Made by a program: the position numbers and the translations under genes. A stretch of DNA of 64,000 bases from positions 13,437-77,436 of the forward strand of contig JBDLIM010000007.1 of NCBI GenBank assembly GCA_039714915.1, given 5' to 3'. This document shows positions 4,650 through 58,776 of this stretch, one piece after another. The first letter of the stretch is position 1; each line of letters opens with the position of its first letter. Under the pieces are notes generated by a model that saw only the letters and a program-made list of their open reading frames with translations, searched no databases and had not been told where the DNA came from. This stretch comes from Bacteroidota bacterium (lineage in GTDB: Bacteria; Bacteroidota; Bacteroidia; Bacteroidales; GCA-2748055).

Positions 4650-7600
4650 CTAGTATTCATCCCAACTTTTGATGGCGATATCCTCCAGGCTCATCTTACA
4701 GATGGCATAAATGAATGCCGATGCCAGCCTGGCGTTGGTGATAAGCGGAATGTTAAAATCCACCGCGCCCCGCCTGATGCTGTAATCGTTGGATAATTCG
4801 TGCGAAGACAGGTCTTTGGGAATGTTGACCACCAGGTCGATCTTTTTGGCCTTCAGGTAGTCCAACACATTGGGTTTCCGGTCCTCATCGGGCCAGGCCA
4901 GATCGATGGATTCAATACCATTTAACCTCAGGAATTCATGGGTCCCATGGGTGGCAAAAAGATGGTAGCCTTTATCGACCAGCATTTTACATGAATTCAC
5001 CAGCTCCACTTTTGAGCGCATTCCACCTGTGGAAAGGAGGATGTTCTTTTTTGGAATGGTATAACCCACCGAAAGCATGGCTTTCAGAATAGCCTCGTAG
5101 TAATTGTCGCCTATGCATCCTACCTCACCGGTGGACGACATATCCACACCCAGCACCGGATCTGCTTTTTTGAGCCTCGAGAAAGAGAACTGAGGAGCTT
5201 TACACCCGATATAGTCCAGGTCGAAAATAGATTTATGTGGTTTTTCGACTGGCACCTTTAGCATGATCTTGGTGGCCTGGTCAATCAGGTTTGACTTCAG
5301 GACCTTGGAGACGAAGGGCATGCTCCGGGAGGCTCGCAGATTACACTCGATCACTTTAATGTCATTGTCTTTAGCCAGAAATTGCATGTTAAACGGACCT
5401 GAGATTTCCAGGGCTTCGGCCAGTTGCCTGGCAATTTTCTTGATTCGTCTGACCGTTTCAAAATAGATTTTCTGGGGTGGAAACACCATGGTAGCATCCC
5501 CAGAGTGCACACCGGCAAATTCTACATGCTCGGAGATGGCATAGGAAAATAACTCTCCCTCGCGGGCCACAGCATCAATTTCTATTTCTTTAGCCTGTTC
5601 AATAAATTCTGAGACCACTACCGGGTACTGTTTTGATACCCTGGCTGCCAGTGTAAGGAATCCTTCCAGTTCTTCGCTGTTAGATACCACATTCATAGCT
5701 GCACCCGACAGGACATAGGACGGTCTAACCAGCAGGGGAAAACCAACTACATCTACAAAAGAAATAATTTCATCCATGCTGCTCAGCTCCTTCCACCTGG
5801 GCTGATCAATGCCCAGCCGGTCCAGCATCATGGAAAATTTATGCCTGTTTTCAGCTTTATCTATGGATTCAGGTGAGGTACCCAGTATATGAACATCCTG
5901 ATCATGCAGGCGCATGGCCAGGTTGTTGGGGATCTGACCACCCACAGATACAATAACCCCTTTGGGCGATTCAAGATCGTAAATATCCATGACCCGTTCA
6001 TAGGATAGCTCATCGAAATAAAGGCGGTCACAAACATCATAGTCAGTGGATACAGTTTCAGGATTATAGTTGATCATAATGGAACGATATCCTTCCTCAT
6101 TCACCGTTTTCAGGGCATTTACACTGCACCAGTCAAATTCCACACTGGATCCGATTCGATAGGCACCCGATCCAAGGACAATTACCGAGCGCTGGTCGGA
6201 GAAGAATTCTATATCATGCTCAGATCCACTGTAGGTAAGGTACAGGTAATTGGTCTGAGCCGGGTATTCTGCTGCCAGGGTGTCAATTTGCTTTACACTG
6301 GGCAGAATCTTGCGTTTCTTCCGGTGCTTCCTCACCTTCTGCAGGTTCTCGGATACATCTCCCGCCATGACCAGGCGGGCCACCTGGAAGTCACTAAAGC
6401 CGGCCTTTTTGGATTGAAGCAGTAACTCATCTTCAAGCTCCTCCAGGGAGCTTACCTGTTCAAGTTCCAGCTTCAGGTCATAGATATTCTTCAGCTTCAC
6501 AAGGAACCACCTATCAATCCGGGTTAACTCGTGGATCCTGTCTATAGAGTAACCCTCCTGGAATGCCTTTTCAATAACCATGATCCTCATATCGGTAGGT
6601 TCCGAAAGCTCATGGTCAATGTTTTCAATTTCCATCTCGTGATTCCCCACAAAACCATGCATGCCCTGACCGATCATCCGTATCCCCTTCTGGATGGCTT
6701 CTTCAAAAGTGCGACCAATGGCCATCACCTCTCCCACCGATTTCATGCTCGAATCGATCAGCTTGGATACTCCCTGAAACTTATTCAGGTCCCAGCGGGG
6801 AATTTTACAGACAATGTAATCCAGTGCGGGCTCGAAGAAGGCTGAGGTGGTTTTTGTGATGGAATTCCTCAGCTGATGCAAACCAAATCCCAGCGCCAGC
6901 TTAGCCGCTACAAAAGCAAGCGGGTAACCGGTTGCCTTGCTGGCCAGCGCCGATGAACGGGAAAGCCTGGCATTTACCTCTATCACCCTGTAATCTTCCG
7001 AGTCGGGATCCAGGGCGTACTGAACATTGCATTCCCCGATAATCCCTATGTGCCGGATGATGTCTATGGAAAGCTTTCTGAGCTTGTGATATTCACTGTT
7101 GGTCAGGGTCTGAGAGGGAGCTACCACAATACTCTCGCCTGTATGGATCCCCAGGGGATCAAAATTCTCCATATTACAGACCGTAATACAGTTGTCGAAG
7201 CGGTCCCTCACCACTTCGTATTCTACCTCTTTCCACCCCTTCAGAGACTCTTCTACCAGGATCTGGGGGGAATATGAAAAAGCTTTTTTTGCCAGCTTAT
7301 CAAGATCCCCTTTATTGTAACAGAAACCACTTCCCTGGCCACCCAGGGTATAGGCAGCTCTGATGATGATGGGATAGCCAAGTTCTTCGGCCGCTTTGTG
7401 TGCATCCTCCTCTGAAGTAACGGCCATGCTGCGGGCAGTCCTTACTTTGATCTCATCCAGCTTGTCTACAAAAAGCTCCCTGTCTTCGGTATCCATGATG
7501 GCCTGAACAGGAGTACCAAGTACCTTTACATTGTGGTCTTCCAGAATTCCCGATTTGTACAGTGCCACTCCGCAATTTAAGGCAGTCTGACCACCAAAGG

Positions 7601-7859
7601 CCAGCAGTATACCGTCGGGTTTTTCTTTCTTGATGACCCTTTCCACAAAATGAGGAGTTACGGGAAGGTAATATATCTTATCGGCTACTTCCTCGGAAGT
7701 CTGTACTGTAGCGATGTTGGGATTGATCAATACTGTAAAAACATCTTCTTCCCGGAGGGCTTTCAGGGCCTGGGAGCCTGAATAATCGAATTCACCGGCT
7801 TCCCCGATTTTTAATGCGCCTGATCCAAGGATCACCACTTTTTTGATTGAGTCGTTCAT
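4650..7859 (-). CDS. carB: Carbamoyl-phosphate synthase large subunit
   Basis: 1069 aa. It shows duplicated ATP-grasp architecture: VVILGSGALKIGEAGEFDYSGSQA near the N-terminus and VIVLGSGAYRIGSSVEFDWCSV at mid-protein, with an MGS-like C-terminal domain. Confidence 0.97.
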   Translation of the reverse strand: MNDSIKKVVILGSGALKIGEAGEFDYSGSQALKALREEDVFTVLINPNIATVQTSEEVADKIYYLPVTPHFVERVIKKEKPDGILLAFGGQTALNCGVALYKSGILEDHNVKVLGTPVQAIMDTEDRELFVDKLDEIKVRTARSMAVTSEEDAHKAAEELGYPIIIRAAYTLGGQGSGFCYNKGDLDKLAKKAFSYSPQILVEESLKGWKEVEYEVVRDRFDNCITVCNMENFDPLGIHTGESIVVAPSQTLTNSEYHKLRKLSIDIIRHIGIIGECNVQYALDPDSEDYRVIEVNARLSRSSALASKATGYPLAFVAAKLALGFGLHQLRNSITKTTSAFFEPALDYIVCKIPRWDLNKFQGVSKLIDSSMKSVGEVMAIGRTFEEAIQKGIRMIGQGMHGFVGNHEMEIENIDHELSEPTDMRIMVIEKAFQEGYSIDRIHELTRIDRWFLVKLKNIYDLKLELEQVSSLEELEDELLLQSKKAGFSDFQVARLVMAGDVSENLQKVRKHRKKRKILPSVKQIDTLAAEYPAQTNYLYLTYSGSEHDIEFFSDQRSVIVLGSGAYRIGSSVEFDWCSVNALKTVNEEGYRSIMINYNPETVSTDYDVCDRLYFDELSYERVMDIYDLESPKGVIVSVGGQIPNNLAMRLHDQDVHILGTSPESIDKAENRHKFSMMLDRLGIDQPRWKELSSMDEIISFVDVVGFPLLVRPSYVLSGAAMNVVSNSEELEGFLTLAARVSKQYPVVVSEFIEQAKEIEIDAVAREGELFSYAISEHVEFAGVHSGDATMVFPPQKIYFETVRRIKKIARQLAEALEISGPFNMQFLAKDNDIKVIECNLRASRSMPFVSKVLKSNLIDQATKIMLKVPVEKPHKSIFDLDYIGCKAPQFSFSRLKKADPVLGVDMSSTGEVGCIGDNYYEAILKAMLSVGYTIPKKNILLSTGGMRSKVELVNSCKMLVDKGYHLFATHGTHEFLRLNGIESIDLAWPDEDRKPNVLDYLKAKKIDLVVNIPKDLSSHELSNDYSIRRGAVDFNIPLITNARLASAFIYAICKMSLEDIAIKSWDEY

Positions 7860-47431: not shown

Positions 47432-49057
47432 TTATGAAGCAGGAACAAGGTCCTTGTTCTTGTTCTTTACAGGCTTGAAGATCCCGATGACACCTTCCAG
47501 ACCCACAGTCATTACTATGTTAATGAAAAAGGCCAGGAATGCGATAAGTAATAAGGCTCCACAGATCAAAGCCAGTATCATATAGAGGTCATACTCCCCG
47601 TTAAAATAAAGTGTTCTCCGGAGCATGCCTTTTAATCCGGCCATGCCCATAAAGGCTCCCATTCCAATGCCCCCTATCAGGTGACACCAGAAGTGCAGAT
47701 TGGCCAGTTTCTGGCTGTAGAGTTTTGCACCGTTGGTGAGTAAGGGTAACAATATGTAAATGGCCGCGTATAGGGTCATGGTGAGTCCCACCAGGATAGC
47801 CACATGCACATGGGGTCCCACTATCCACTGAGTGTTATGCAGAATGCGGTTCAGACCCACATCTGCCTGCATAATTCCGGCGGGTACAGCCAGGGCAAAT
47901 CCCAGGAGTCCTCCCAGCAGAAACTTCAGTTCGTTGGTCATTTTTAAAGGTCTGGCAGCCCAGAGAGTAGCCAGGGTAATAAAGAAAGCCAGGCCCTGGG
48001 TAATTAATTCAAATGCCGTAACCATTTCACCGGACAGGACTTTCAGGAATCCGGGTTGAGCCTGGTCAGAAAGAAGGTGATGCGACCATACTGTCCATGA
48101 TACGATGAGCTCAACCAGAAGGGCTGCACGGGCAATGTTTTGCATAAAGAGTTTCTTCCCGGTGATCATGGTGGCCAGCAGGTACCAGGTTCCGGCCACA
48201 AAAATAAGGACCAGACCATCAGCAATCAGATCAAGGCCCCACCAGAACCAGTTCTTATAAAGCAGGGCATCCACAGCTGTTTCCTTCAGATCATATCCGA
48301 GGATGGCTGCTACCATGTAGACAAGGATGAGCACACCCGTAAACAGGATGATTCCTGCATTCAGCGCCATATCAACTGTACCCCTGGCAATTGCTGCAAC
48401 AGGAAGGGATACCAGGTGTTCTTTGCGCTTATTTTTCTTTTTAAAGAGATTGCCGAAGCCTGCTGTCCCCAGGGCCGATCCCAGCAATTTGCCGGCAGGT
48501 TGTTTCTCCCACCCCTCTGGTGTATAGGAAATGGTCTTAAATATGTTAATAATAAAGAAAACCGAACCCAGCATGACAAGGGCAATTCCAAGTATGAAGA
48601 TGGCTCCTCCTACCGGATTGAATTGAGAGAAATCAGCCGGTAAGGGCCAGTAGAGCGTATAAAGTGGTGCATAGTGAGAAATAAATCCGGCCAGCCAGAA
48701 AATTAAGGTTCCGGCTGCGATCAGGATGAAGTTCCAGTGAGCCAGCTTCATGCTGTAGAGAGGTTTCTTCATAAGGAATGGGACCAGGAAGAGGAATGCT
48801 CCACAGACTATGGAGTAAGTCGAGCCAAAGATCCCCACCAGGGGGTGAGCTGTAAGTATGGCAAAGTACTGGACATCGGAGACCATGTCGATTTGCTCCA
48901 CTTGAATGACTCTCATAATCATTCCTTCCACCAGGACAAAGAGATAGAAGACCAGTCCGACGACTACAAAACGCAGGGTAAGTTTTTGCATGGCGGTGAG
49001 GGTTTCGGATTTGAATAATCCCTGTTCGCCTTTCATAAGGGTATTAATAAATGACAT
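47432..49057 (-). CDS. Heme-copper oxidoreductase superfamily subunit I, atypical active site (NO-reductase-like)
   Basis: 541 aa with about 12 TM helices. The conserved HCO histidines are H71 (LTAHPLVGIFG), H326/H327 (WSHHLL) and H416/H418 (LHNTQWIVGPHVHV). The helix-VI motif reads WFWWGLDLIADG, so Asp276 occupies the position of the metal-ligand His and Asp280 that of the cross-linked Tyr. Confidence 0.85.
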   Translation of the reverse strand: MSFINTLMKGEQGLFKSETLTAMQKLTLRFVVVGLVFYLFVLVEGMIMRVIQVEQIDMVSDVQYFAILTAHPLVGIFGSTYSIVCGAFLFLVPFLMKKPLYSMKLAHWNFILIAAGTLIFWLAGFISHYAPLYTLYWPLPADFSQFNPVGGAIFILGIALVMLGSVFFIINIFKTISYTPEGWEKQPAGKLLGSALGTAGFGNLFKKKNKRKEHLVSLPVAAIARGTVDMALNAGIILFTGVLILVYMVAAILGYDLKETAVDALLYKNWFWWGLDLIADGLVLIFVAGTWYLLATMITGKKLFMQNIARAALLVELIVSWTVWSHHLLSDQAQPGFLKVLSGEMVTAFELITQGLAFFITLATLWAARPLKMTNELKFLLGGLLGFALAVPAGIMQADVGLNRILHNTQWIVGPHVHVAILVGLTMTLYAAIYILLPLLTNGAKLYSQKLANLHFWCHLIGGIGMGAFMGMAGLKGMLRRTLYFNGEYDLYMILALICGALLLIAFLAFFINIVMTVGLEGVIGIFKPVKNKNKDLVPAS

Positions 49058-49084
49058 AATGAAGTTTTTTAGGTTAATATGGGA

Positions 49085-49648
49085 TTACTCAGAGATGCTG
49101 CCTTCGGGAACAACTTCCACGGCATTTTCTATGACCATGGCTACCCCCTTTGGACCTGAGTACTCGGTCGACCGAATGGTATAGACACCAGGTTTCAGAA
49201 ATTTCCAGATGATATCGTTCCGGTGACCCGGTACCACCTGCATCTGAAATAACATGGAGTTATCCTGTCTGAACAGTCCAAACCCATAGGTGAGGTCCAG
49301 AGAAGTGACATCGAATTCCACAATTTCACCGACCTCCACAATCATTTTCTCATCTGGAAGCAGGAATTCATGATTGGCCACATCGATGGCAAAACTCCTG
49401 TCGGGAGTGATCTCGTGACGTTTGAGATCCATTTCCGACCAGGGAATGGTATTATAGGTTATGATGTGCAGGGAAACTCCCAGCACGGTCAGGAATCCGA
49501 CAAAAGTGTAAAATAATGCCGGTTTCACTGTGCTTTTTCCTGGCTTGGTTATACGTAATGCGAACCATGCCATTACCAGTATAATAACCAAACTATAACA
49601 GGTATAAGCAATTGTTTGTCCTTTCAGGACGAGGGCTGAATCAACCAT
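49085..49648 (-). CDS. Oxidase subunit II-like cupredoxin protein lacking CuA ligands
   Basis: 187 aa with two N-terminal TM helices and a ~110-aa beta domain. The positions corresponding to the CuA His and the CxExCxxxH motif read DLTYGFG and RSTEYSGPKGVAM, with no Cys or His. There is no heme c motif. Confidence 0.6.
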   Translation of the reverse strand: MVDSALVLKGQTIAYTCYSLVIILVMAWFALRITKPGKSTVKPALFYTFVGFLTVLGVSLHIITYNTIPWSEMDLKRHEITPDRSFAIDVANHEFLLPDEKMIVEVGEIVEFDVTSLDLTYGFGLFRQDNSMLFQMQVVPGHRNDIIWKFLKPGVYTIRSTEYSGPKGVAMVIENAVEVVPEGSISE

Positions 49649-49718
49649 ACGACTTCCGTTTTTTAGCTTAGTTTAACATAAAATGCTACCCAATTATAGC
49701 ATATAAATATAAAAAAAA

Positions 49719-50129
49719 TCAATGTTTCATATCAGGATTTTTCATTTGAGCCAATGTAGTGTTTTTGAGCACATTAAGTAAGATTTCCCGGGTCTTGGCC
49801 CAGGGCTTATGCATGACACAGGAATGGTTAAACGGACATTGTTCTAGTCCCATTATGCAGGTTCCCAGTACATCCAGCCCTTCCACAGAGTCTATTATAT
49901 CAGCCAGGGTGATTAGGTCGGTCGACTTCTGCAATACAAATCCGCCATTTCGACCCTGTACACTGTCAATGAAACCGCTTTTTGACAGGCTTGTGAGCAA
50001 TTGTCGGAGGTAGGGCCAGGGAATTTTCAGGATCTCATTGAGCTGTTTGGCAGAGTATTTCTCACCTTTATGATCAGCCAGAAAGCTGAGGGTCATTAAG
50101 GCATATGAGGTTGTTTTGCTAAAATTCAT
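49719..50129 (-). CDS. Rrf2-family transcriptional regulator with three-Cys Fe-S ligand motif (NsrR/IscR-like)
   Basis: It has an N-terminal wHTH (MNFSKTTSYALMTLSFLADHKGEKYSAKQLNEILKIPWPYLRQLL) and the Cys cluster GTCIMGLEQCPFNHSCVMH (C-x6-C-x5-C). The start is placed at ATG 50129; the ORF-track start at 50147 is a TTG. Confidence 0.85.
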   Translation of the reverse strand: MNFSKTTSYALMTLSFLADHKGEKYSAKQLNEILKIPWPYLRQLLTSLSKSGFIDSVQGRNGGFVLQKSTDLITLADIIDSVEGLDVLGTCIMGLEQCPFNHSCVMHKPWAKTREILLNVLKNTTLAQMKNPDMKH

Positions 50130-50217
50130 ACCTGCGGGAGTGCACAATCAGATGGTGCCGATTAAATGCGATTCGAATATAGCAATTACTACGGTTATGA
50201 CGAAGTTATTACATGAT

Positions 50218-50244: not shown

Positions 50245-51258
50245 ATGTCAGTCTCTTTTCCTAAGGTCTCTGTTATTCTTCCATTCTATAATTCAGAAAG
50301 TACACTGAACAGGGCCGTTCAAAGCATATATGAACAAGAGTTCGAGGATTTTGAATGCATCATGGTTGACAACAATTCAACAGATAAAAGTGCAGAACTG
50401 GCTGAAGGCTGGACCAGGAAGGATAAGCGATTTCGCCTGCTCAAGGAAGCGCGGCAGGGAGTAATGTTTGCTTCCAACAGGGGTGCTGAGCTGAGTCATG
50501 GCGAATACCTGGCCAGGATGGATTCGGATGACCTGGCTTATCCCTGCCGCCTGCGTTTGCAGGTGGCGTTCCTGGACAAAAATCCGGAATACGGAGCAGT
50601 TGCAGGAAAGGTTAGGCATGTAGGAGAACCTGGCAGGACAGAAGGATTCAGACGCTTTGTGGAATGGAGTAATTCTCTTGTATCTTTTGAAGAAATAAAT
50701 TACCGCCGTTTTATTGAAGCACCTTTGGTAAATCCAAGTGCCATGTGGAGAAGAGATACCATGGCTCGCCATGGCATGTACCTCAGCGGGGATTTTCCTG
50801 AGGATTATGAAATGTGGCTGAGGTGGCTGGATGAGGGGGTGAAAATTGCTAAAGTGCCCGAGGTAATTCTGGACTGGCATGATTCAGACCTGCGCCTGAC
50901 CCGTACGGATCCCATCTATAGTGAAGGAGCCTTCTATGAGATCAAGAGCAAATACCTGGCTAAATGGTTGAGCCGGCACAATCCTTTTCACCCCAATGTG
51001 GCCATATGGGGTGCCAGCAGGATCTCCAGGCGTAGGGCCAGGATCCTGGAACAGCATGGAATCAGAATCAGCACCTACATTGATACCAAGAGCAGTCGCC
51101 AGATTAAAAAGGAGGTAGTTTATTATCAGGACCTTCCCCGGGCAGGAGAACACTTTGTCCTGAGCTACATCCGGCAGATGAACAATCGGGAAAAGATACA
51201 GGATTTCCTTGAGAAGCGGGGGTATCGCGAAGGAGAAAGCTACCTGCTGGTTTCCTGA
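50245..51258 (+). CDS. Glycosyltransferase family 2
   Basis: 337 aa with a GT-A N-terminus (VSVILPFYNSESTLNRAVQSIYEQEFEDFECIMVDNNSTD) and a DxD-like motif (RMDSDDLA). Confidence 0.85.
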   Translation: MSVSFPKVSVILPFYNSESTLNRAVQSIYEQEFEDFECIMVDNNSTDKSAELAEGWTRKDKRFRLLKEARQGVMFASNRGAELSHGEYLARMDSDDLAYPCRLRLQVAFLDKNPEYGAVAGKVRHVGEPGRTEGFRRFVEWSNSLVSFEEINYRRFIEAPLVNPSAMWRRDTMARHGMYLSGDFPEDYEMWLRWLDEGVKIAKVPEVILDWHDSDLRLTRTDPIYSEGAFYEIKSKYLAKWLSRHNPFHPNVAIWGASRISRRRARILEQHGIRISTYIDTKSSRQIKKEVVYYQDLPRAGEHFVLSYIRQMNNREKIQDFLEKRGYREGESYLLVS

Positions 51259-51331
51259 TGCTACAGTGGATCGGGATTTAATTTGTAATTTGGCATTTAG
51301 ATTTAATTACAAGCTCATAAAAAATTCACCT

Positions 51332-52258
51332 ATGCAACGTAGATCTTTTCTTAAAAGCAGTGCCGTGGCATCTGCAGCTCTTGTTTCGGGAGGAATGGCA
51401 CATGCCTCAGCTGCCACAGCGCTGAAAGCTTCACAAACCAGTCCCCAATTTAACTTAAAATATGCCCCGCATTTTGGAATGTTTAAGCATTCGGCCGGAG
51501 AGGACCTGCTTGATCAGCTTCAGTTTATGGCCGATGCCGGGTTTACGGCCATGGAAGACAATGGGATGAAGGGTCGTGATATATCCATGCAGGAAAAGAT
51601 TGCCGGCAAAATGGCCAAGCTGGGAATGGAGATGGGTGTATTTGTAGCCCATTCCATATACTGGAAAGAACCTAATTTAACCAGTGGCAATCCCGAGAAA
51701 CTGGATGAATTTTTAAAAGAGATTAAAGAATCGGTGGAAGTGGCAAAGAGGGTCAATGCTAAATGGATGACTGTGGTTCCCGGTCATGTGGATTTGCGTA
51801 AGGATATGGGATATCAGACCCGGAATGTAGTTGAAGCGCTCAGGCGGGCCAGCGACATCCTGGAACCCCATGGACTGACCATGGTACTGGAGCCCCTGAA
51901 TTTCAGGGATCATCCAGGTTTGTTCCTGAATAAGATCCCGCAGGGCTATCAGATCTGCCAGGCAGTGGCCAGCCCTGCTTGTAAAATTCTGGACGACCTT
52001 TATCACCAGCAAATTCATGAAGGGAACCTGATCCCTAATATGGATCTGGCCTGGGAAGAGATTGCTTACTTCCAGGTGGGAGATAATCCCGGAAGAAAAG
52101 AGCCCACCACCGGGGAGATCAATTACCTGAATGTATTTAAACACATACATGAAAAAGGATTTACAGGCATTGTGGGCATGGAACACGGGAATTCAATCCC
52201 CGGTAAAGAAGGGGAAGAAGCCCTTATCAAGGCCTATGCCAGTGTGGACAACTTCTAA
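51332..52258 (+). CDS. Tat-exported xylose-isomerase-like TIM-barrel protein (hydroxypyruvate isomerase / sugar phosphate isomerase-epimerase family)
   Basis: It has a twin-arginine signal (MQRRSFLKSSAVASAALVSGGMAHA) and a TIM-barrel family pattern (FNLKYAPHFGMF...AGFTAMEDN...VLEPLN...GIVGMEHG). The start is placed at the ATG carrying the Tat signal; the ORF track extends to 51209. Confidence 0.8.
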   Translation: MQRRSFLKSSAVASAALVSGGMAHASAATALKASQTSPQFNLKYAPHFGMFKHSAGEDLLDQLQFMADAGFTAMEDNGMKGRDISMQEKIAGKMAKLGMEMGVFVAHSIYWKEPNLTSGNPEKLDEFLKEIKESVEVAKRVNAKWMTVVPGHVDLRKDMGYQTRNVVEALRRASDILEPHGLTMVLEPLNFRDHPGLFLNKIPQGYQICQAVASPACKILDDLYHQQIHEGNLIPNMDLAWEEIAYFQVGDNPGRKEPTTGEINYLNVFKHIHEKGFTGIVGMEHGNSIPGKEGEEALIKAYASVDNF

Positions 52259-52335: not shown

Positions 52336-53685
52336 CTATTTAGGGGCTGACCCTGCAATGGGGATAACTTTTTCCATATCCACCTTTCCCATTTTCAATT
52401 CGCCTTCAGGTCCCAGTTTCCAACTGGCGCCCATCATCTCCTCCCAGCTAACTTTCTTTCCGGTATAAGCGGCCTCTCTTCCCATAATTGCAGTGAGCAC
52501 TGATTTTGCCGTTTCCTCTGCTTCCACAATCTGGTTCCCTGTACGGATGGCCGCAACCAGGTCTATGTGTTCCTGGACATAGGGATTGATTTCCAGGGGT
52601 TTGCCTTCTGCATCCACAGGAGAAGCATACTCATACAGTAGATTGTCTTCCGAATCCCAGATATGTTGATTCTGGTCCCCGGCAATCATATACCCTTTTG
52701 TACCCCTGATGTGCTCACTTACGCTGTTGGCACAATCGTTAATCTGGCGGCACATGCTGCCCATATGCACTTTCTTATCATATACAAAATCCACACTGAA
52801 ATTGTCATAGCAATCCCCGGTAGGCCTTCTGAGTCTTGAGCCCATACCCACAGCTTCAACAGGTACACCACCCACAAACCAGTTGCTTACATCAATGTTA
52901 TGCACATGTTGTTCCACAATATGGTCCCCTGAGAGCCATGTCCAGTTCACCCAGTCGCGCAGCATATGCTCCATTTCTGTCCAGCCGGCCATCAGGTCCT
53001 TGTGCCAGAGCTTGGACATATTCCAGTACACATTGGTGGCAACTATATCCCCAATCATACCTGCATCTACACGGGCCTTTAAATTCTGATAGGACCACTG
53101 GTGGCGCCTCTGGGTGCCCGTAACCACACATAGTCCGGCAGCTTCAGCCTGCTTGGAGGCAGCCATAACTGCACGTGCTCCCACCGGGTCAACAGCCACA
53201 GGTTTCTCCATAAATACATGCTTGCGGGCTTCCACACAGGCCTGAAAATGCTCTGGGCGGAAATAAGGCGGAGTGGCAAGGATCACAATATCCACATCAG
53301 ATTCAATCACCCGTTTATAGGCATCAAAACCGATGGAACACCTGGAATCCTCCAGGGTCACATTTTTCTCATCTTTCAGTTTCTGACGAAAACCGTCCAT
53401 CCTGTCCTGAAACATATCAGCAGCAGCAACAACACTCAGGCCGGATCCGGCATCCAGGAAGTTAATGGCAGCACCAGTGCCTCTTCCCCCGCAACCAATA
53501 ACACCTGCTTTAAGAGCCTGTCCTTCCGGAGCAGTGGACAGGAATGAAGGTTCTACCACATCAGCAGCGGATTCCCCGGGTGTACATGATTTGATTAACT
53601 GGCTTGCACCAATCGCGCCGATTGCACCTATGGCAGCAGTGTTCTCTAAAAATCTGCGCCGACTTGTTTTGTTTGATGGTTTCAT
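52336..53685 (-). CDS. Tat-exported Gfo/Idh/MocA-family NAD(P)-dependent oxidoreductase
   Basis: It has a twin-arginine signal (MKPSNKTSRRRFLENTAAIGAIGAIGA), a Rossmann motif (AGVIGCGGRGTGAA) and a Gfo/Idh/MocA core (HVFMEKP). The start is placed at the first ATG; the ORF-track start at 53724 is a TTG. Confidence 0.85.
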   Translation of the reverse strand: MKPSNKTSRRRFLENTAAIGAIGAIGASQLIKSCTPGESAADVVEPSFLSTAPEGQALKAGVIGCGGRGTGAAINFLDAGSGLSVVAAADMFQDRMDGFRQKLKDEKNVTLEDSRCSIGFDAYKRVIESDVDIVILATPPYFRPEHFQACVEARKHVFMEKPVAVDPVGARAVMAASKQAEAAGLCVVTGTQRRHQWSYQNLKARVDAGMIGDIVATNVYWNMSKLWHKDLMAGWTEMEHMLRDWVNWTWLSGDHIVEQHVHNIDVSNWFVGGVPVEAVGMGSRLRRPTGDCYDNFSVDFVYDKKVHMGSMCRQINDCANSVSEHIRGTKGYMIAGDQNQHIWDSEDNLLYEYASPVDAEGKPLEINPYVQEHIDLVAAIRTGNQIVEAEETAKSVLTAIMGREAAYTGKKVSWEEMMGASWKLGPEGELKMGKVDMEKVIPIAGSAPK

Positions 53686-53732
53686 ATTTGATAGTCTTTT
53701 ATAAAGTAAAGTTTGCTTAAGCAAGTTATGGT

Positions 53733-55256
53733 TTAATTGTTTACAGCTGGAGCATCGGGTTCACAAACTACCCTGAATCCCACGGACATGCAATCGGAAT
53801 ACCACCAGACGCTTTTTGGGATCTGGGGATCGGTCTTCATCCAGGGTTCTGTTTTTGTAATATTCCGGGATGCACAACGGACAAAATCAGCAGTTTCCAT
53901 AAAGGAGCCACCTCTGATCACATGTTCTTCTCCGGACGCTGGCCCGCTGGGATTTAAAACGGTTCCCTCAGGATATTGGGAATAGGCATCAGCTGCATAC
54001 CAGTCTGAACAGAACTCGGCCACATTCCCAAGCATATTGATCAGTCCAAAGGGATTCTCCCTGATCTGATCCGGACCGGCAGTTCGGGCCATGCTGTTTT
54101 CACTATAATAAATGTAACTGTTAATTCCGAAAGTATCCACACCAAATAGTTTATTTCTGATGCCTTTATTCACATATCGCTTCGGATCACCCTCGAAGAA
54201 ATAAGCTGAATTGGTACCACCCCTGGCAGCATATTCCCATTCAGCTTCTGTAGGCAGCCTGTAGGTTTTCCCTGTAATCTTTGTCAGCCACCGGCAATAT
54301 ACTTCAGCGGCATGATGGGTCATAGTAATGGCCGGCCTTCTGCCTTTGCCCCAGCCCTGATCAGGAGCGCCATAGGGAGGAGTGGGCCCCGAGATTGCAT
54401 CCACATCTCCCAGGTCCGTTTGGATAAAAGTATCTGTGGTTTTTATCTGAGATTCTGTCTGTTTAAAGAAGGCAAGGTACTCATTCCACGATACTTCAAT
54501 CTGAGCCATAAAGAAGGAATTAACCTCTACTTCCCTCACTGGTCCTTCATCGTCCTTTCGGAAGGGCTCATCCTCAGGGCTGCCCATCTGGAAGGTGCCT
54601 CCTGGGATGGCTATCATTTCAAAACTTACATTGGAGCCGGGAATATACTCTGTAAAGCTATTGAAGCCTTCCACTACTCCCGGTTCTGTATAGATTTCAG
54701 TGTCCTCCACTTCGGCAATTCCAAAATCGGTATTCTTTGCATGCAGCCGGTCCGGATCATAATGGCCAACTGTGATATGGCAATTGATGCAGTGCAGGTC
54801 ACCCTCCTGTTGTTCGTAATAAAGATGTGCCTCTCTTCCTTCAGCTGTCAGGCCCAAGGGGAAATTATTCTGGTGACAATGGATACAGGCAGCTTCGAAG
54901 CTGTGGTTTTTAGCGTATTCAATCCGGGATTTTAATTCCCAGTTGAAACTCTCCGGATCTTTAAATAACTTTCCCCAGAGATCGCGAAGACCGGTACGCG
55001 TCTTTTCTGCCAGGTATCCTTCGCCATGGGGAGGTAAATGACAGTCCACACAGTGTACATGGATTCCATGTTTATTATCATGGTGCGTGGAAAGCTTCCA
55101 GCTCTGGGTAGAGTGGGGATGGATATGGCACGAGGCACAGAAATCATCTGTGGAGGTGGCTGATATTGCCTTATTTCCAAAAAAGATGATCCCTGCAGTT
55201 AACACCACCCCGGTAAGGAAGAGCAGCCTGCCAGTATTTGTGCTTTTTAGTCTCAT
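53733..55256 (-). CDS. Fusion protein: NapC/NirT-type membrane-anchored tetraheme cytochrome c plus an FGE/SUMF1-like (sulfatase-modifying-factor fold) domain
   Basis: 507 aa with an N-terminal TM anchor and four CxxCH motifs in the first ~165 aa (CASCH, CVDCH, CIHCH, CINCH). The C-terminal ~300 aa carry FGE-family motifs (IPGGTFQMGSPEDE, VSWNEYLAF, YRLPTEAEWEYAARGG, GNVAEFCSDWY, IRGGSF). Confidence 0.8.
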   Translation of the reverse strand: MRLKSTNTGRLLFLTGVVLTAGIIFFGNKAISATSTDDFCASCHIHPHSTQSWKLSTHHDNKHGIHVHCVDCHLPPHGEGYLAEKTRTGLRDLWGKLFKDPESFNWELKSRIEYAKNHSFEAACIHCHQNNFPLGLTAEGREAHLYYEQQEGDLHCINCHITVGHYDPDRLHAKNTDFGIAEVEDTEIYTEPGVVEGFNSFTEYIPGSNVSFEMIAIPGGTFQMGSPEDEPFRKDDEGPVREVEVNSFFMAQIEVSWNEYLAFFKQTESQIKTTDTFIQTDLGDVDAISGPTPPYGAPDQGWGKGRRPAITMTHHAAEVYCRWLTKITGKTYRLPTEAEWEYAARGGTNSAYFFEGDPKRYVNKGIRNKLFGVDTFGINSYIYYSENSMARTAGPDQIRENPFGLINMLGNVAEFCSDWYAADAYSQYPEGTVLNPSGPASGEEHVIRGGSFMETADFVRCASRNITKTEPWMKTDPQIPKSVWWYSDCMSVGFRVVCEPDAPAVNN

Positions 55257-55500: not shown

Positions 55501-56406
55501 ATGCAAAGCAAACAAACAGCCATGACCCTCAATCAACTCTCAAAAGAAGATCGTAATTTTCTAAATACACTTGTTGAAAAGGGAGGCCCTGAGCCCAATG
55601 AATACAAAGAATTCACGGCCATAGTAAACAACCTGGAAGACCAGGAACTGGAACATTTCAGAAATGTAATCCGGGAATCTCTCAATGAGAATACACTGAT
55701 CGGGCATGGATTTGTTAAACCCTATGGGTATCCCGGTGATTTTACCATTATTCACAATATATATAAGGAGTATGTAAATCCTGATGGGAAGTATAGCAAC
55801 TGGGATCGTTTTTTTCAGGATCAGGCCGGGGCACAGGCTGTGCGTAACAGGAAAGACTATTTTTTAAAACGCTGTGCAGAGATTGACAAAAAGGCAGATA
55901 AGGATAAGCATGTCCTGATCCTTGGATCTGGTCCGGCCACAGATGTGAATGAGTACCTTAAGAAGAATCCGAAAAGCAGGATTAAGTTTGATCTGGTCGA
56001 TTTTGATCAGAACGCCATCGATTTTTCCAGGATGCAGAATGAATCTTTTAAAGACGCCATTAACTATTATAAAATCAATGTACTGAGATTTAAACCCTAT
56101 CAGTGGTATGACCTGATCTGGAGTGCGGGTCTCTTCGATTACTTCAAGGACAAGCACTTTGTTTATATGGTTAATAAGTACTACAAGTACCTTACTGAGG
56201 GAGGCGAATTTATCATTGGTAATTTCTCTCACAGCAATCCAACCAAAAGGCTGATGGAAGTACTTTCTGACTGGTACCTGGTTCACAGGTCAAAGAATGA
56301 CCTGGTCAGGATGGCCCTGGAGGCTGAAGCTTCCAAAGAGCTGGTGGAAGTTGAAATGGAAGAACTTGGAGTAAATCTGTTCCTTAGAATTAAAGCAGCA
56401 TCATGA
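55501..56406 (+). CDS. Class I SAM-dependent methyltransferase, PhcB-like candidate
   Basis: 301 aa with SAM motif I (VLILGSGPATDV), post-I LVDFDQNAI, and WSAGLFDYF...LTEGGEFIIGNF. The N-terminal region has KPYGYPGDFTIIHNIY and AQAVRNRKDY. From memory these are characteristic of the methyltransferase family annotated as 3-hydroxypalmitate methyl ester (extracellular factor) biosynthesis proteins. Confidence 0.75.
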   Translation: MQSKQTAMTLNQLSKEDRNFLNTLVEKGGPEPNEYKEFTAIVNNLEDQELEHFRNVIRESLNENTLIGHGFVKPYGYPGDFTIIHNIYKEYVNPDGKYSNWDRFFQDQAGAQAVRNRKDYFLKRCAEIDKKADKDKHVLILGSGPATDVNEYLKKNPKSRIKFDLVDFDQNAIDFSRMQNESFKDAINYYKINVLRFKPYQWYDLIWSAGLFDYFKDKHFVYMVNKYYKYLTEGGEFIIGNFSHSNPTKRLMEVLSDWYLVHRSKNDLVRMALEAEASKELVEVEMEELGVNLFLRIKAAS

Positions 56407-56407
56407 G

Positions 56408-58390
56408 ATGAATCTTTCCTCCGTATTTAAAGGGAACCTCTTTGGGATGCCAACCCCAGGTCGGGACGACTGGAAGCTGAACAGGATTACCCTGGCTTTC
56501 AGTGGGGAGATCAGCCAATATGAGAGTGATTTCAGGGACGATTATTTCAATCGATCCATCGATCCCATGAGATTCTCCCTGATTCTCTCCATCTTCTTTT
56601 TTGGAATTTTCGCCTTTCTGGATGCTGTTCTCTTGCCTGAACTGAAGAACATGTTCTGGTTCATCAGGTTTGGGATCATTACTCCTTTGCTTATTGCAGT
56701 GATTGGATTCTCGCTAAGTCGCGGTTTCAAAAAGTTCATGCAGCCTGTGCTGTCAGCCACCATGTACCTGACGGGCCTTTCCATTATCGTAATGATCATT
56801 TTTGCTGCAAATGTAGCTGAACATTACACCTATTATGCCGGACTGATCCTCATTTTCATCATTGGTTATACCTTTATAAAGGCCAGGTTCATCTATGCGA
56901 CAGTGGTGGGCTGGTCCATTGTCGCAAGCTATGAAGTAGCGGCTATATGGCTTTCAGATACACCCATTGAAATTCTCATAAACAATAACTTTTTCTTTAT
57001 CAGCGCCAATGTGATTGGTATGTTTATCTCCTATTTCATGGAGCAGTCGGTTCGAAGGGATTTTTACATGCGTATCCTCCTGGAAAAAGAGCAGGAAAAA
57101 GTGAAGGCTGCCAACAATGCACTGGAAAAAAGCGTTCAGGAAAGAACGCGTCAGCTTACCCTGGCCAATAAAGACCTGAAAAAGGAGATAGAAATTCGTA
57201 AACACCACGAGAAGGAAAAAACCAAGTTGGAAGGTCAGTTGCTTCAGTTGCAAAAAATGGAAACTATTGGAACGCTTGCAGGTGGTATAGCACATGATTT
57301 CAATAACATTCTTACACCCATACTCGGATATACAGAGATGGCCCTTGAAGAACTGTCGGATGAGAGTGTTCTGCGTTATGACATTGAACAAATCAACAGT
57401 GCTGCCATCCGTGGAAAGGACCTGGTTCAGCAAATCCTTACCTTCAGCCGGCAGATGGATTTTGATAAGAAACCAATTAAACTGGATGATGTGGTCAGGG
57501 AGGTACTGAAGCTTATCAGAGCATCCTTCCCTTCAAGTATTGAGATCAAGCAGGACCTTGATTCCAACTGTGGGACGGTGCTGGCAGATTCGACACAAAT
57601 GCACCAGATTATCATGAACCTGTGTACAAATGCGTACCATGCCATGTCGAATACCGGGGGTGTGCTGAGTGTAAGCCTGGATAAGCAATCGGTTAGCCCA
57701 CGTCAGATCGGTGGATCGGTAAAGATACAGAAAGGCATATATGTCAGGCTGATTATAGCAGATACAGGTCATGGCATGGACAAAAGGACCATCGAAAGGA
57801 TCTTTGAACCCTTCTTTACAAAGAAGGAGGTTGGATCTGGTTCGGGTCTTGGCTTATCAGTGGTACATGGTATAGTGAGTAATAATAACGGTGCCATTGA
57901 AGTGGAAAGCGAACCCGGGAAGGGATCTAAATTCATTATTTACCTTCCCCAGCATTCCGAACACCAGGATTCGGAGGGGGATGTATCTCAAAAAGCAAAG
58001 AAGGGCAAGGGAAACATATTGTTTGTGGACGATGAAAAGGAAATCACCTTTATGGGTAAACGGATGCTGGAAAGCCTGGGCTATAATGTGGATATAAAAA
58101 CAGACAGTCAGACTGCTCTCCAGGATTTCAAAAAGAATCCTGAAAAGTACGATCTCCTGGTAACCGATCAGGCCATGCCCAGGATGACAGGAACTGAACT
58201 GATCGGTGAAATTAAACAGATTCGTCCCGACCTGAAGACCATCATTATTACAGGATACCAGGATTCAATTCCGGTGAATGCCACAGAACAGTACGGAATA
58301 ACAAATATAATCTCTAAACCACTTATTCTGAGCGAGTTCAGCGATCTCATCCGGACTGTTCTTAGCCAGGATATTAAAAAGGCTTCATAA
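56408..58390 (+). CDS. Hybrid sensor histidine kinase (polytopic membrane sensor, HisKA, HATPase_c, C-terminal receiver)
   Basis: 660 aa with about 6 TM segments in residues ~50-210 and a coiled coil. It has the H-box GGIAHDFNNILTPILGY, an N-box NLCTNAYHAM, G-boxes DTGHGM / GSGSGLGLS, and a receiver ILFVDDE...LLVTDQAMPRMTG. Its start is 1 nt after the methyltransferase stop. Confidence 0.9.
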   Translation: MNLSSVFKGNLFGMPTPGRDDWKLNRITLAFSGEISQYESDFRDDYFNRSIDPMRFSLILSIFFFGIFAFLDAVLLPELKNMFWFIRFGIITPLLIAVIGFSLSRGFKKFMQPVLSATMYLTGLSIIVMIIFAANVAEHYTYYAGLILIFIIGYTFIKARFIYATVVGWSIVASYEVAAIWLSDTPIEILINNNFFFISANVIGMFISYFMEQSVRRDFYMRILLEKEQEKVKAANNALEKSVQERTRQLTLANKDLKKEIEIRKHHEKEKTKLEGQLLQLQKMETIGTLAGGIAHDFNNILTPILGYTEMALEELSDESVLRYDIEQINSAAIRGKDLVQQILTFSRQMDFDKKPIKLDDVVREVLKLIRASFPSSIEIKQDLDSNCGTVLADSTQMHQIIMNLCTNAYHAMSNTGGVLSVSLDKQSVSPRQIGGSVKIQKGIYVRLIIADTGHGMDKRTIERIFEPFFTKKEVGSGSGLGLSVVHGIVSNNNGAIEVESEPGKGSKFIIYLPQHSEHQDSEGDVSQKAKKGKGNILFVDDEKEITFMGKRMLESLGYNVDIKTDSQTALQDFKKNPEKYDLLVTDQAMPRMTGTELIGEIKQIRPDLKTIIITGYQDSIPVNATEQYGITNIISKPLILSEFSDLIRTVLSQDIKKAS

Positions 58391-58776
58391 TGGCTAGAAT
58401 TTTAGTAATTGACGATGAGCCTCATATTCTTCTTATGGTAAAGAAGATGCTGGAACGGACAGGCTATAAAGTGGACATTGCATCCAATGGGAGTGAAGGA
58501 CTCCGGCTCTTTGAGATCATCAATCCTGATCTTGTTATTACGGATATCATTATGCCTGAAAAAGAGGGTTTAGAGACTATCCGGGCGATGAAAAAGAGGA
58601 GCAAGGATTTGAAAATCATCGCCATGTCGGGGGGAGGAAAAATATCGGCAGATAATTACCTGGAGACTGCCAGGGTTTTTGGAGCAGCCAGGTTAATAGA
58701 GAAACCTTTCTCACAGAAACTTTTACTTTCGTACGTGGAAGAATTATTAGGACCCGGGGATAAGCAGCAGGGCTGA
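58390..58776 (+). CDS. Single-domain response regulator (CheY-like receiver only)
   Basis: 128 aa with RILVIDDEPHIL, DLVITDIIMPEKEG and IIAMSGGG. It has a TAATG overlap with the kinase stop. Confidence 0.9.
   Translation: MARILVIDDEPHILLMVKKMLERTGYKVDIASNGSEGLRLFEIINPDLVITDIIMPEKEGLETIRAMKKRSKDLKIIAMSGGGKISADNYLETARVFGAARLIEKPFSQKLLLSYVEELLGPGDKQQG

Follow-up and report, generated by a model that had tools for sequence, protein, structure and literature searches.

The gene considered here raises the question of why a cytochrome of the quinone-interacting NapC/NirT type should be joined to a domain with the fold of a sulfatase-maturing enzyme. It lies on the minus strand at positions 53733-55256 of a 64,000-nucleotide stretch of contig JBDLIM010000007.1 from a member of the Bacteroidales (assembly GCA_039714915.1; this whole stretch is called the window below). 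Its 507-residue product consists of a transmembrane anchor, a NapC/NirT-type tetraheme cytochrome c, a linker and a domain with the fold of the formylglycine-generating enzyme (FGE). A gene for a Gfo/Idh/MocA oxidoreductase with a twin-arginine translocation (Tat) signal follows on the same strand. Based on sequence comparisons, we slightly favor the view that the fusion is the membrane-anchored electron-transfer subunit of a two-protein periplasmic dehydrogenase, in which electrons would pass from the Gfo protein to flavin mononucleotide (FMN), then to the hemes and finally to menaquinone.

The periplasm has no pool of nicotinamide adenine dinucleotides (NAD(P)). Periplasmic Gfo/Idh/MocA enzymes oxidize glycosides to 3-keto sugars in gut and environmental Bacteroidota. 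For BT2158 of Bacteroides thetaiotaomicron, the electron acceptor is explicitly stated to be unknown and, since NAD(P) exchange in the periplasm is impossible for a Tat-exported Gfo protein, an unidentified second sugar was postulated as the electron sink (Liu 2021, PMC8121099).

A tetraheme cytochrome and an FGE-fold domain in one gene

The fusion is a single open reading frame (ORF) with an ATG start and a TAA stop. Pfam assigned Cytochrom_NNT (PF03264) to residues 11-169 (E 4.5e-28) and FGE-sulfatase (PF03781) to residues 213-466 (E 2.9e-44), which agrees with the original prediction, made from the DNA letters of the window, of an anchored tetraheme module and a complete FGE-fold domain in one ORF. 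The linker between them (residues 170-212; 54621-54749, minus strand) is weakly conserved and was modeled by AlphaFold2 (AF2) with a predicted local distance difference test score (pLDDT) of 33-60. The mean pLDDT of the AF2 model was 61.8, with values below 50 in the heme module and in both of the signature loops described below.

Such a protein could also arise if a frameshift or an assembly error joined two genes. When the fusion was compared with a collection of 5.8 billion proteins, both Pfam domains were present in all of the 120 best matches (70-100% identity), which came from independent sources. Relatives of the fusion are encoded in 374 species-representative genomes, and the architecture is also found in cultured isolates, namely Carboxylicivirga spp. 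and Mangrovibacterium marinum DSM 28823. Since 374 species-level genomes encode a relative and the 120 best matches all have two domains, the fusion is not an artefact; we found nothing in favor of a spurious join, and its probability is negligible. The homologues carry the NCBI product name 'SUMF1/EgtB/PvdO family nonheme iron enzyme'. No characterized example of a NapC-FGE fusion was known when the gene was first noted, and our literature searches, which included two flavinylation surveys with their stored supplements, likewise found the system undescribed, although the phrase 'Gfo/Idh/MocA' is possibly one that such searches cannot match, so that its absence is not proof. The system is apparently undescribed, and the fusion is real and widespread.

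The N-terminal membrane anchor comprises residues 8-31 (55164-55235, minus strand), which are the sole hydrophobic segment of the fusion (19-residue windows, Kyte-Doolittle >1.6). AF2 predicts a helix at residues 6-34, and the anchor aligns with that of Desulfovibrio NrfH (2j7a). The tetraheme module, of a type that interacts with quinol or quinone (residues 11-169; 54750-55226, minus strand), scored 98.6 bits against PF03264, whose cut-off is 24.1. Its four CxxCH motifs (C40/C43/H44, C69/C72/H73, C124/C127/H128 and C156/C159/H160), which had been likened to those of NapC, NirT and NrfH, are all invariant in an alignment of 36 relatives reaching down to 36% identity, and the same alignment shows H46, H58, K85, D92, H144 and H165 to be invariant. 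K85 and D92 align with the K and D of the NrfH segment 'FKAIAGARDVY', which we take to be the quinol-site residues Lys82 and Asp89 of NrfH. The module falls below the cut-offs of all NCBIfam models compared (score/cut-off in bits: TIGR02161, 58.6/310.6; TIGR03153, 64.2/134.2; TIGR02162, 66.9/478.2; NF007906, 45.7/349). The NrfH-like anchor supports the periplasmic topology that had been proposed, and the NapC-type topology together with signal peptides on stand-alone relatives of the FGE-like domain places the fusion, by prediction, outside the cytosol. Coupling of the protein to the quinone pool through its hemes is likely.

A conserved Gfo/Idh/MocA partner

The Gfo gene (52336-53685, minus strand) starts with an ATG at 53685, 47 nt past the TAA of the fusion, and the 47-nt spacer (53686-53732) contains no terminator-like hairpin on the minus strand. 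The encoded protein, 449 residues from this ATG, scored 50.6 bits with PF01408, 38.5 with PF22725 and 28.8 with PF02894, and its Tat signal matched TIGR01409 with 20.2 bits (cut-off 16.7). At its N-terminus (53547-53685) the Tat signal is followed by a conserved lipobox-like Cys (...ASQLIKSC). Among 135 orthologues, 122 have RRxF[LIVM] and 117 have such a Cys after the Tat motif. This suggests that the Gfo partner is a Tat-exported lipoprotein, which would tether the dehydrogenase to a membrane near the cytochrome.

FGE-like domains of the same subfamily are also encoded without the NapC module. The genomes of at least 598 species (Planctomycetota, Verrucomicrobiota, Acidobacteriota, aerobic Bacteroidota and others) encode stand-alone, secreted relatives, again beside a Gfo orthologue. 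At least 10 loci join the domain to PSCyt1 class-I cytochrome c, present as one domain or as two. The presence of two unrelated cytochrome types on one domain subfamily argues strongly for electron exchange between the domain and c-type hemes.

Among loci with sufficient flanking sequence, a Gfo orthologue and the FGE-like gene are no more than 500 nt apart in 63 of 77 NapC-type, 33 of 49 stand-alone and 8 of 13 PSCyt-type loci; 61 of the 77 NapC-type loci have the Gfo gene immediately downstream on the same strand. The background, taken from the same loci more than 3 kb away, holds one Gfo-family ORF in 1.05 Mb. All 23 loci whose fusions have diverged to 38-57% identity, including those from metagenome-assembled genomes (MAGs) of Phycisphaerae and Planctomycetales (Planctomycetota), keep the Gfo gene directly downstream, and nothing else around the pair is conserved in them. 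The reciprocal search from the Gfo protein found an adjacent FGE-like gene in 47 of 67 loci and added NapC-type fusions in Calditrichota and Gemmatimonadota. The co-oriented neighbor to which the original prediction had drawn attention is thus the conserved partner, and we are highly confident, from gene order, that the two proteins function together. Gene fusions between Gfo and FGE-like proteins, which would have served as Rosetta-stone evidence, were not found.

Loss of the FGE active site

The FGE-fold domain (residues 213-499; 53760-54620, minus strand) scored 152 bits with PF03781, matched FGE structures in the PDB (E 6e-29 for Thermomonospora curvata FGE), and had human FGE and PvdO as its top Foldseek matches with template modeling scores of 0.64-0.71 (normalized to the target). 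The segment after RGGSF reads METADFVRCASRN and contains only one Cys, as had been noticed from the sequence. When we aligned the domain with human FGE, using a sequence that agrees with the PDB alignments, the catalytic Cys336 corresponded to E454 and the catalytic Cys341 fell in a three-residue gap. The remaining C461 aligned with Cys346, a structural residue that forms a disulfide with Cys235, and the counterpart of Cys235 in the fusion is C321. The PDB alignment agrees, with GGSFMET in the fusion against GGSFLCH in T. curvata FGE. The proposal that the protein is not a sulfatase-maturing FGE therefore stands, with the refinement that both catalytic Cys residues are absent and the one that is left is structural rather than catalytic; a function as sulfatase maturase is ruled out by this loss. 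The 'GNVxE' Ca-site region is retained.

The 36-sequence alignment contains no invariant His or Cys in the FGE-like domain, which argues against copper sites of the FGE type and iron sites of the EgtB type and led us to reject a copper or iron enzyme. The suggested kinship with PvdO, EgtB and GldK holds at the level of the fold but not as membership, since no equivalog cut-off was reached: PvdO (NF051459) gave 115.6 bits against 500, GldK/PorK (TIGR03525) 108.3 against 350, and EgtB/OvoA/SenA 60-69 against 360-420. A GldK-type lipobox is also absent, the N-terminus of the fusion being the cytochrome anchor, and Pfam detected in the fusion no DinB domain, which in EgtB/OvoA/SenA is N-terminal and bears an iron-binding His triad.

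The subfamily has a C-terminal signature of its own, W472..D476-P-Q-x-P-K-S-x-W-W-x-S487 (53796-53843, minus strand), in a 16-residue insertion relative to FGE. It is invariant in the alignment and common to the stand-alone relatives, occurs in 1 of 117 other large FGE-family relatives, and was modeled with pLDDT below 50. An exhaustive search at 50% clustering returned few clusters of the full NapC fusion, together with close FGE-only relatives carrying this W..DPQ.P.S.WW signature.

A flavinylation-like motif and its linkage to ApbE

ApbE links FMN to the last residue of D-x-x-[S/T]-G-A-[S/T] (PMC8238504, PMC12052999). Within the FGE-fold domain, residues D286-A-I-S-G-P-T292 (54381-54401, minus strand) form a candidate for such a site, with Thr292 as the proposed FMN acceptor, and the subfamily as a whole has D-[AG]-[IV]-[ST]-[G/R]-[P/A]-[T/S]. 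Among 179 sequences, position 286 is D in 177, 287 is A or G, 288 is I or V, 289 is S or T, and 290 is G in 110 and R in 45. Position 291 is exclusively P (122) or A (57) and position 292 exclusively T (158) or S (21). A second, independent set has T or S at position 292 in all of its 55 sequences, giving 234 of 234 overall, and the restriction at 291 and 292 spans at least seven phyla. The canonical [ST]GAT is found exactly in 47 of 102 NapC-type proteins, the others having [ST]GPT or VGAT. ApbE accepts G-to-A and A-to-V replacements at about 50% yield, with T/S alone essential and T preferred (PMC12052999); the bias of T over S at position 292 matches this preference. The motif is absent from PvdO and only loosely matched in 8 of the 117 other large multi-FGE relatives, and these controls rule it out as a general feature of the FGE family.

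ApbE genes adjoin the FGE-like/Gfo pair in three loci in which they were identified by Pfam (L130, L145 and L153; E 1e-62 to 1e-74). When the ApbE hidden Markov model was compared with all ORFs of at least 150 residues in 185 loci and the window, it detected 30 ApbE genes, all 30 of which stand beside the pair; five further genes in the reciprocal, Gfo-seeded set bring the total to 35 loci with an adjacent ApbE. The 1.05 Mb of background flank contains none. In one locus (L103) the gene order is ApbE, NapC-FGE, Gfo. No other ORF of the ApbE-bearing clusters has a canonical flavinylation motif, and the Gfo neighbor is ruled out as the ApbE substrate, with the canonical motif in 0 of 135 orthologues. 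A dedicated, tightly conserved ApbE clade is unsupported, the cluster-associated ApbE proteins being only 24-50% identical across phyla. The text and stored supplements of two flavinylation surveys (PMC8238504, PMC11334425), one supplement being incomplete, do not mention FGE, sulfatase, Gfo or NapC. Conservation of the motif and its linkage to ApbE lead us to lean towards FMN being covalently attached to Thr292.

A proposed electron-transfer mechanism

Gfo paralogues at 44-50% identity adjoin genes for 3-keto-disaccharide hydrolases and TIM barrels, and for this reason a glycoside or cyclitol hydroxyl is our best guess for the substrate. In the proposed mechanism, the Gfo protein would probably leave the cytoplasm with NAD(P) already bound, like Zymomonas Gfo, and would oxidize a sugar-type alcohol in the periplasm to a ketone. 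ApbE would attach FMN to Thr292 via a phosphoester bond. This FMN may then take a hydride, that is two electrons, from the Gfo-bound nicotinamide and pass the electrons singly to the four hemes, with menaquinone in the membrane then being reduced by the NapC/NrfH-type module. Covalently bound to the FGE-like domain, the FMN would thereby be the two-electron/one-electron converter required between bound NAD(P)H and hemes. In aerobic phyla a class-I cytochrome c, either fused or separate, would replace the NapC module beside the FGE-like/Gfo pair. Textbook potentials favor the direction from substrate to menaquinone, placing the ketone/alcohol and NAD(P) couples well under menaquinone and still more so under class-I cytochromes c. 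A redox or binding domain hard-wired to a conduit into the quinone pool, as originally envisaged, is supported by these data.

In a broader form, the proposal is that evolution has turned the FGE fold into a new class of electron-transfer domain flavinylated by ApbE. Together with a Tat-exported, NAD(P)-bound Gfo protein it would constitute an unrecognized periplasmic 'nicotinoprotein-flavin-cytochrome' respiratory dehydrogenase, present in hundreds of species of at least seven phyla with interchangeable cytochromes, NapC-type leading to menaquinone in anaerobic Bacteroidales and PSCyt1 class-I cytochrome c in aerobes. We regard this broader statement as evenly balanced between right and wrong.

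Several observations weigh against the flavin-dependent mechanism. The motif in the window is SGPT and not SGAT, with Pro in place of Ala, and most ApbE-adjacent relatives read [ST]RP[TS]. To our knowledge, Pro at position -1 has been accepted by no ApbE so far, the tolerance data being limited to G-to-A and A-to-V. The D-A-[IV] part also occurs in canonical FGEs ('MDAVVPEAP' in T. curvata FGE) and is therefore ancestral to the fold, so that only positions 289-292 are specific to the subfamily. The motif loop has pLDDT below 50 in the AF2 model. No ApbE gene is found in the 64-kb window, and ApbE stands beside 1 of 77 NapC-type genes (Bacteroidales), so that the proposal needs a housekeeping ApbE; Nqr/Rnf are generally present in Bacteroidales. 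The known ApbE-linked FMNs are one-electron relays, and we know of no precedent for their uptake of a hydride from protein-bound NAD(P)H. As to the pairing, 14 of the 77 NapC-type loci have no Gfo gene within 500 nt, and some loci labeled Bacteroidales or Rikenellaceae carry SusC/SusD instead. Finally, the loci were sampled by peptide patterns with up to 80 per query, and ORF calling was simple.

A rival possibility is that the FGE-fold domain holds no cofactor and is a docking scaffold that keeps the Gfo protein against the hemes, with Thr292 in a structural or interface role and the electrons taking another route. The non-canonical SGPT, the lack of an adjacent ApbE in Bacteroidales loci and the poorly modeled loop would all suit such an adaptor, and the fold has repeatedly been reused as a binding module elsewhere, for example in the PorK/GldK rings of the type IX secretion system and in immunity proteins of the type VI secretion system (PMC12421860 and bioRxiv 2021.05.21.445229). 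However, an adaptor leaves unexplained why 35 ApbE genes adjoin the pair against none in the background when no other protein of the clusters has the motif, and why, across at least seven phyla, positions 291 and 292 admit only P/A and T/S, respectively. Established flavoenzyme chemistry also requires a two-electron/one-electron converter for NAD(P)H to feed a heme, and we consider a cofactor-less adaptor unlikely. Another rival is an autonomous enzyme: like FGE, PvdO or EgtB, the FGE-like domain would itself work as an oxidase or oxygenase that depends on a metal, using heme electrons to act on a small molecule or a protein, and the Gfo protein would be functionally unrelated. PvdO, a dihydropyoverdine dehydrogenase, is indeed the best NCBIfam match (115.6 bits) and the closest solved structure to the stand-alone relatives, and the NCBI name points to nonheme iron enzymes. 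Against this stand the absence of both copper-binding Cys residues of FGE, of any invariant His or Cys and of DinB, family scores far under the cut-offs, and a Gfo pairing too conserved for coincidence, which together make an autonomous enzyme very improbable.

The direction of electron flow could also be the opposite one. NapC would then oxidize menaquinol and the FGE-like domain would feed the Gfo protein as a periplasmic reductase, or the chain would serve only to reset a Gfo cofactor caught in the wrong redox state while the enzyme performs redox-neutral, GH109/GH4-type catalysis. Most characterized NapC/NirT/NrfH proteins are quinol dehydrogenases, in line with the NCBIfam matches, known flavinylated systems usually supply extracytosolic reductases (PMC8238504), and redox-neutral cycles are possible for Gfo-family enzymes (Zymomonas Gfo, treated in PMC8121099). 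By textbook potentials, however, electrons would have to climb from about -75 mV (menaquinol) to about -320 mV (NAD(P)) or to the level of ketone/alcohol couples, and the PSCyt1 class-I cytochromes of the parallel fusions are usually of high potential and fit electron acceptance better. Cytochrome cM552 is a precedent in the NapC family for quinone reduction. A reductive or repair role therefore appears quite unlikely, and we retain electron flow from the Gfo protein to menaquinone as the preferred reading.

Comparison with known systems

The fusion resembles NrfH, NapC, CymA and cytochrome cM552 in its N-terminal anchor, its four CxxCH motifs in about 160 residues and the Lys/Asp pair aligned to the menaquinol site of NrfH, and it would likewise be an interface to the quinone pool. 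Unlike the NapC/NirT, NrfH, TorC and NapC subfamilies, it stays far under their cut-offs; its first heme motif is CxxCHxH, whereas that of NrfH is CxxCHxM. No characterized NapC/NirT member is known to have a C-terminal FGE-fold domain, and the direction proposed here is quinone reduction, as in cM552, rather than quinol oxidation.

With ApbE-flavinylated proteins (the FMN_bind domains of NqrC/RnfG/PplA, DUF2271, DUF3570, Flavodoxin_4 and FMN_red; PMC8238504, PMC11334425) the FGE-like domain shares a predicted extracytosolic location, a D-x-x-[ST]-G-A-[ST]-like motif with an invariant T/S end, clustering with apbE and the company of membrane cytochromes. It differs from published ApbE substrates in its FGE/C-type-lectin-like fold and in the Pro at position -1 of the window protein and most relatives, and its partner is an NAD(P)-type Gfo/Idh/MocA protein, whereas published ApbE systems contain a fumarate-reductase-like or iron-handling module. 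The fold is that of SUMF1 and PvdO, and the structural disulfide pair of SUMF1 is kept as C321-C461. Unlike SUMF1, the domain has lost Cys336/Cys341 and gained the flavinylation-like loop and the 16-residue C-terminal insertion; PvdO has a deletion at the position of the motif.

The Gfo protein with its neighbors recalls the 3-keto-glycoside pathway BT2156-BT2159 of B. thetaiotaomicron (PMC8121099; Liou 2020) and the ThuAB/LacABC glycoside 3-dehydrogenases, in which a Tat-exported Gfo-family dehydrogenase is encoded with TIM-barrel and/or DUF1080 hydrolase genes. It shares with BT2156-BT2159 the question of how a periplasmic nicotinoprotein is re-oxidized. No FGE-like or cytochrome partner has been described for BT2158, and the Gfo protein of the window is distinct from the curated BT_2158 family (NF058561; 20.4 bits against a cut-off of 750), as are its relatives beside DUF1080 hydrolases, which also score below the cut-off. 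LacABC, a flavoprotein-cytochrome c system, belongs to another family.

If the proposal is true, it would give periplasmic Gfo-type sugar dehydrogenases a concrete, testable electron outlet, and respiration and energy conservation would be directly coupled to the oxidation of sugars in the periplasm. The range of ApbE substrates would be extended by a new fold and by a non-canonical motif in which Pro occupies position -1. A large set of proteins misnamed 'SUMF1/EgtB/PvdO family nonheme iron enzyme' or 'sulfatase modifying factor' would gain a function, and caution would be needed in counting such genes as sulfatase maturases in polysaccharide-degrading bacteria.

Neighboring genes and related architectures

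Beyond the Gfo gene lies a gene on the plus strand for a Tat-exported, xylose-isomerase-like TIM-barrel protein (51332-52258; PF01261). The Tat signal occupies residues 42-58 of a long, TTG-started ORF, which overlaps the 3' end of a GT2 glycosyltransferase gene (50245-51258) and covers window positions 51209-51331 ahead of the TIM-barrel gene. M42 is the first residue of the Tat motif, which makes the ATG at 51332 the probable true start. The TIM barrel is found in 44 of 80 close loci, follows the Gfo gene co-directionally in relatives at 58-60% identity, and occurs at 50-67% identity in about 15 Chitinophagaceae-type and related loci. Its absence from the 23 most divergent NapC-type loci rules it out as an obligate third subunit; it is a frequent but non-universal third component.

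The genes that lie upstream of the fusion in divergent orientation (55501-58776, plus strand) encode an S-adenosylmethionine-dependent methyltransferase-like protein, a hybrid histidine kinase (660 residues) and a single-domain response regulator, and are kept in about 21 close relatives only. Because of this narrow conservation their position is probably plain synteny rather than a sign of functional partnership. In the loci in which SusC/SusD follow the fusion, the divergent upstream gene instead encodes a 476-residue protein that joins an FmdE domain to an inosine-uridine nucleoside hydrolase domain, and a class-I fumarate hydratase gene adjoins. This nucleoside hydrolase-FmdE fusion lies at 6361-7791 on the minus strand of L070 and has equivalents in L042, L045, L055, L066, L071, L052 and L062.

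Several genomes contain more than one copy of the components. One MAG (CAZOYZ01) has two fusion copies (L039 and L043), and Prolixibacteraceae JC049 (L190 and L215) has two Gfo paralogues, only one of them with an FGE-like partner. Such duplicate fusions and Gfo paralogues in single genomes imply that an organism can have several versions of the system, each specific for its own substrate. Two FGE-like paralogues of the subfamily stand in tandem in some Planctomycetota loci (L160, 5839-7095 and 7137-8444; L124). The large FGE-family relatives used as controls include giant proteins (P0121 with 4448 residues, P0123 with 3008 residues, and about 115 others), which contain up to 20 tandem FGE-fold stretches, have no heme motifs and almost never have the flavinylation-like motif.

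Further along the minus strand, positions 47432-50147 encode a divergent heme-copper-oxidase subunit I (541 residues, PF00115), a 187-residue CoxB-like cupredoxin subunit and an Rrf2-family regulator. Subunit I stays far under every NCBIfam cut-off, with 102 bits against 671 for CtaD and 61 against 583 for ccoN. The trio, which is syntenic in several relatives (L001, L012, L014, L021 and L032), could be an oxidase of the nitric-oxide-reductase type or of some other unusual kind, in a Bacteroidales genome that resembles those of anaerobes.

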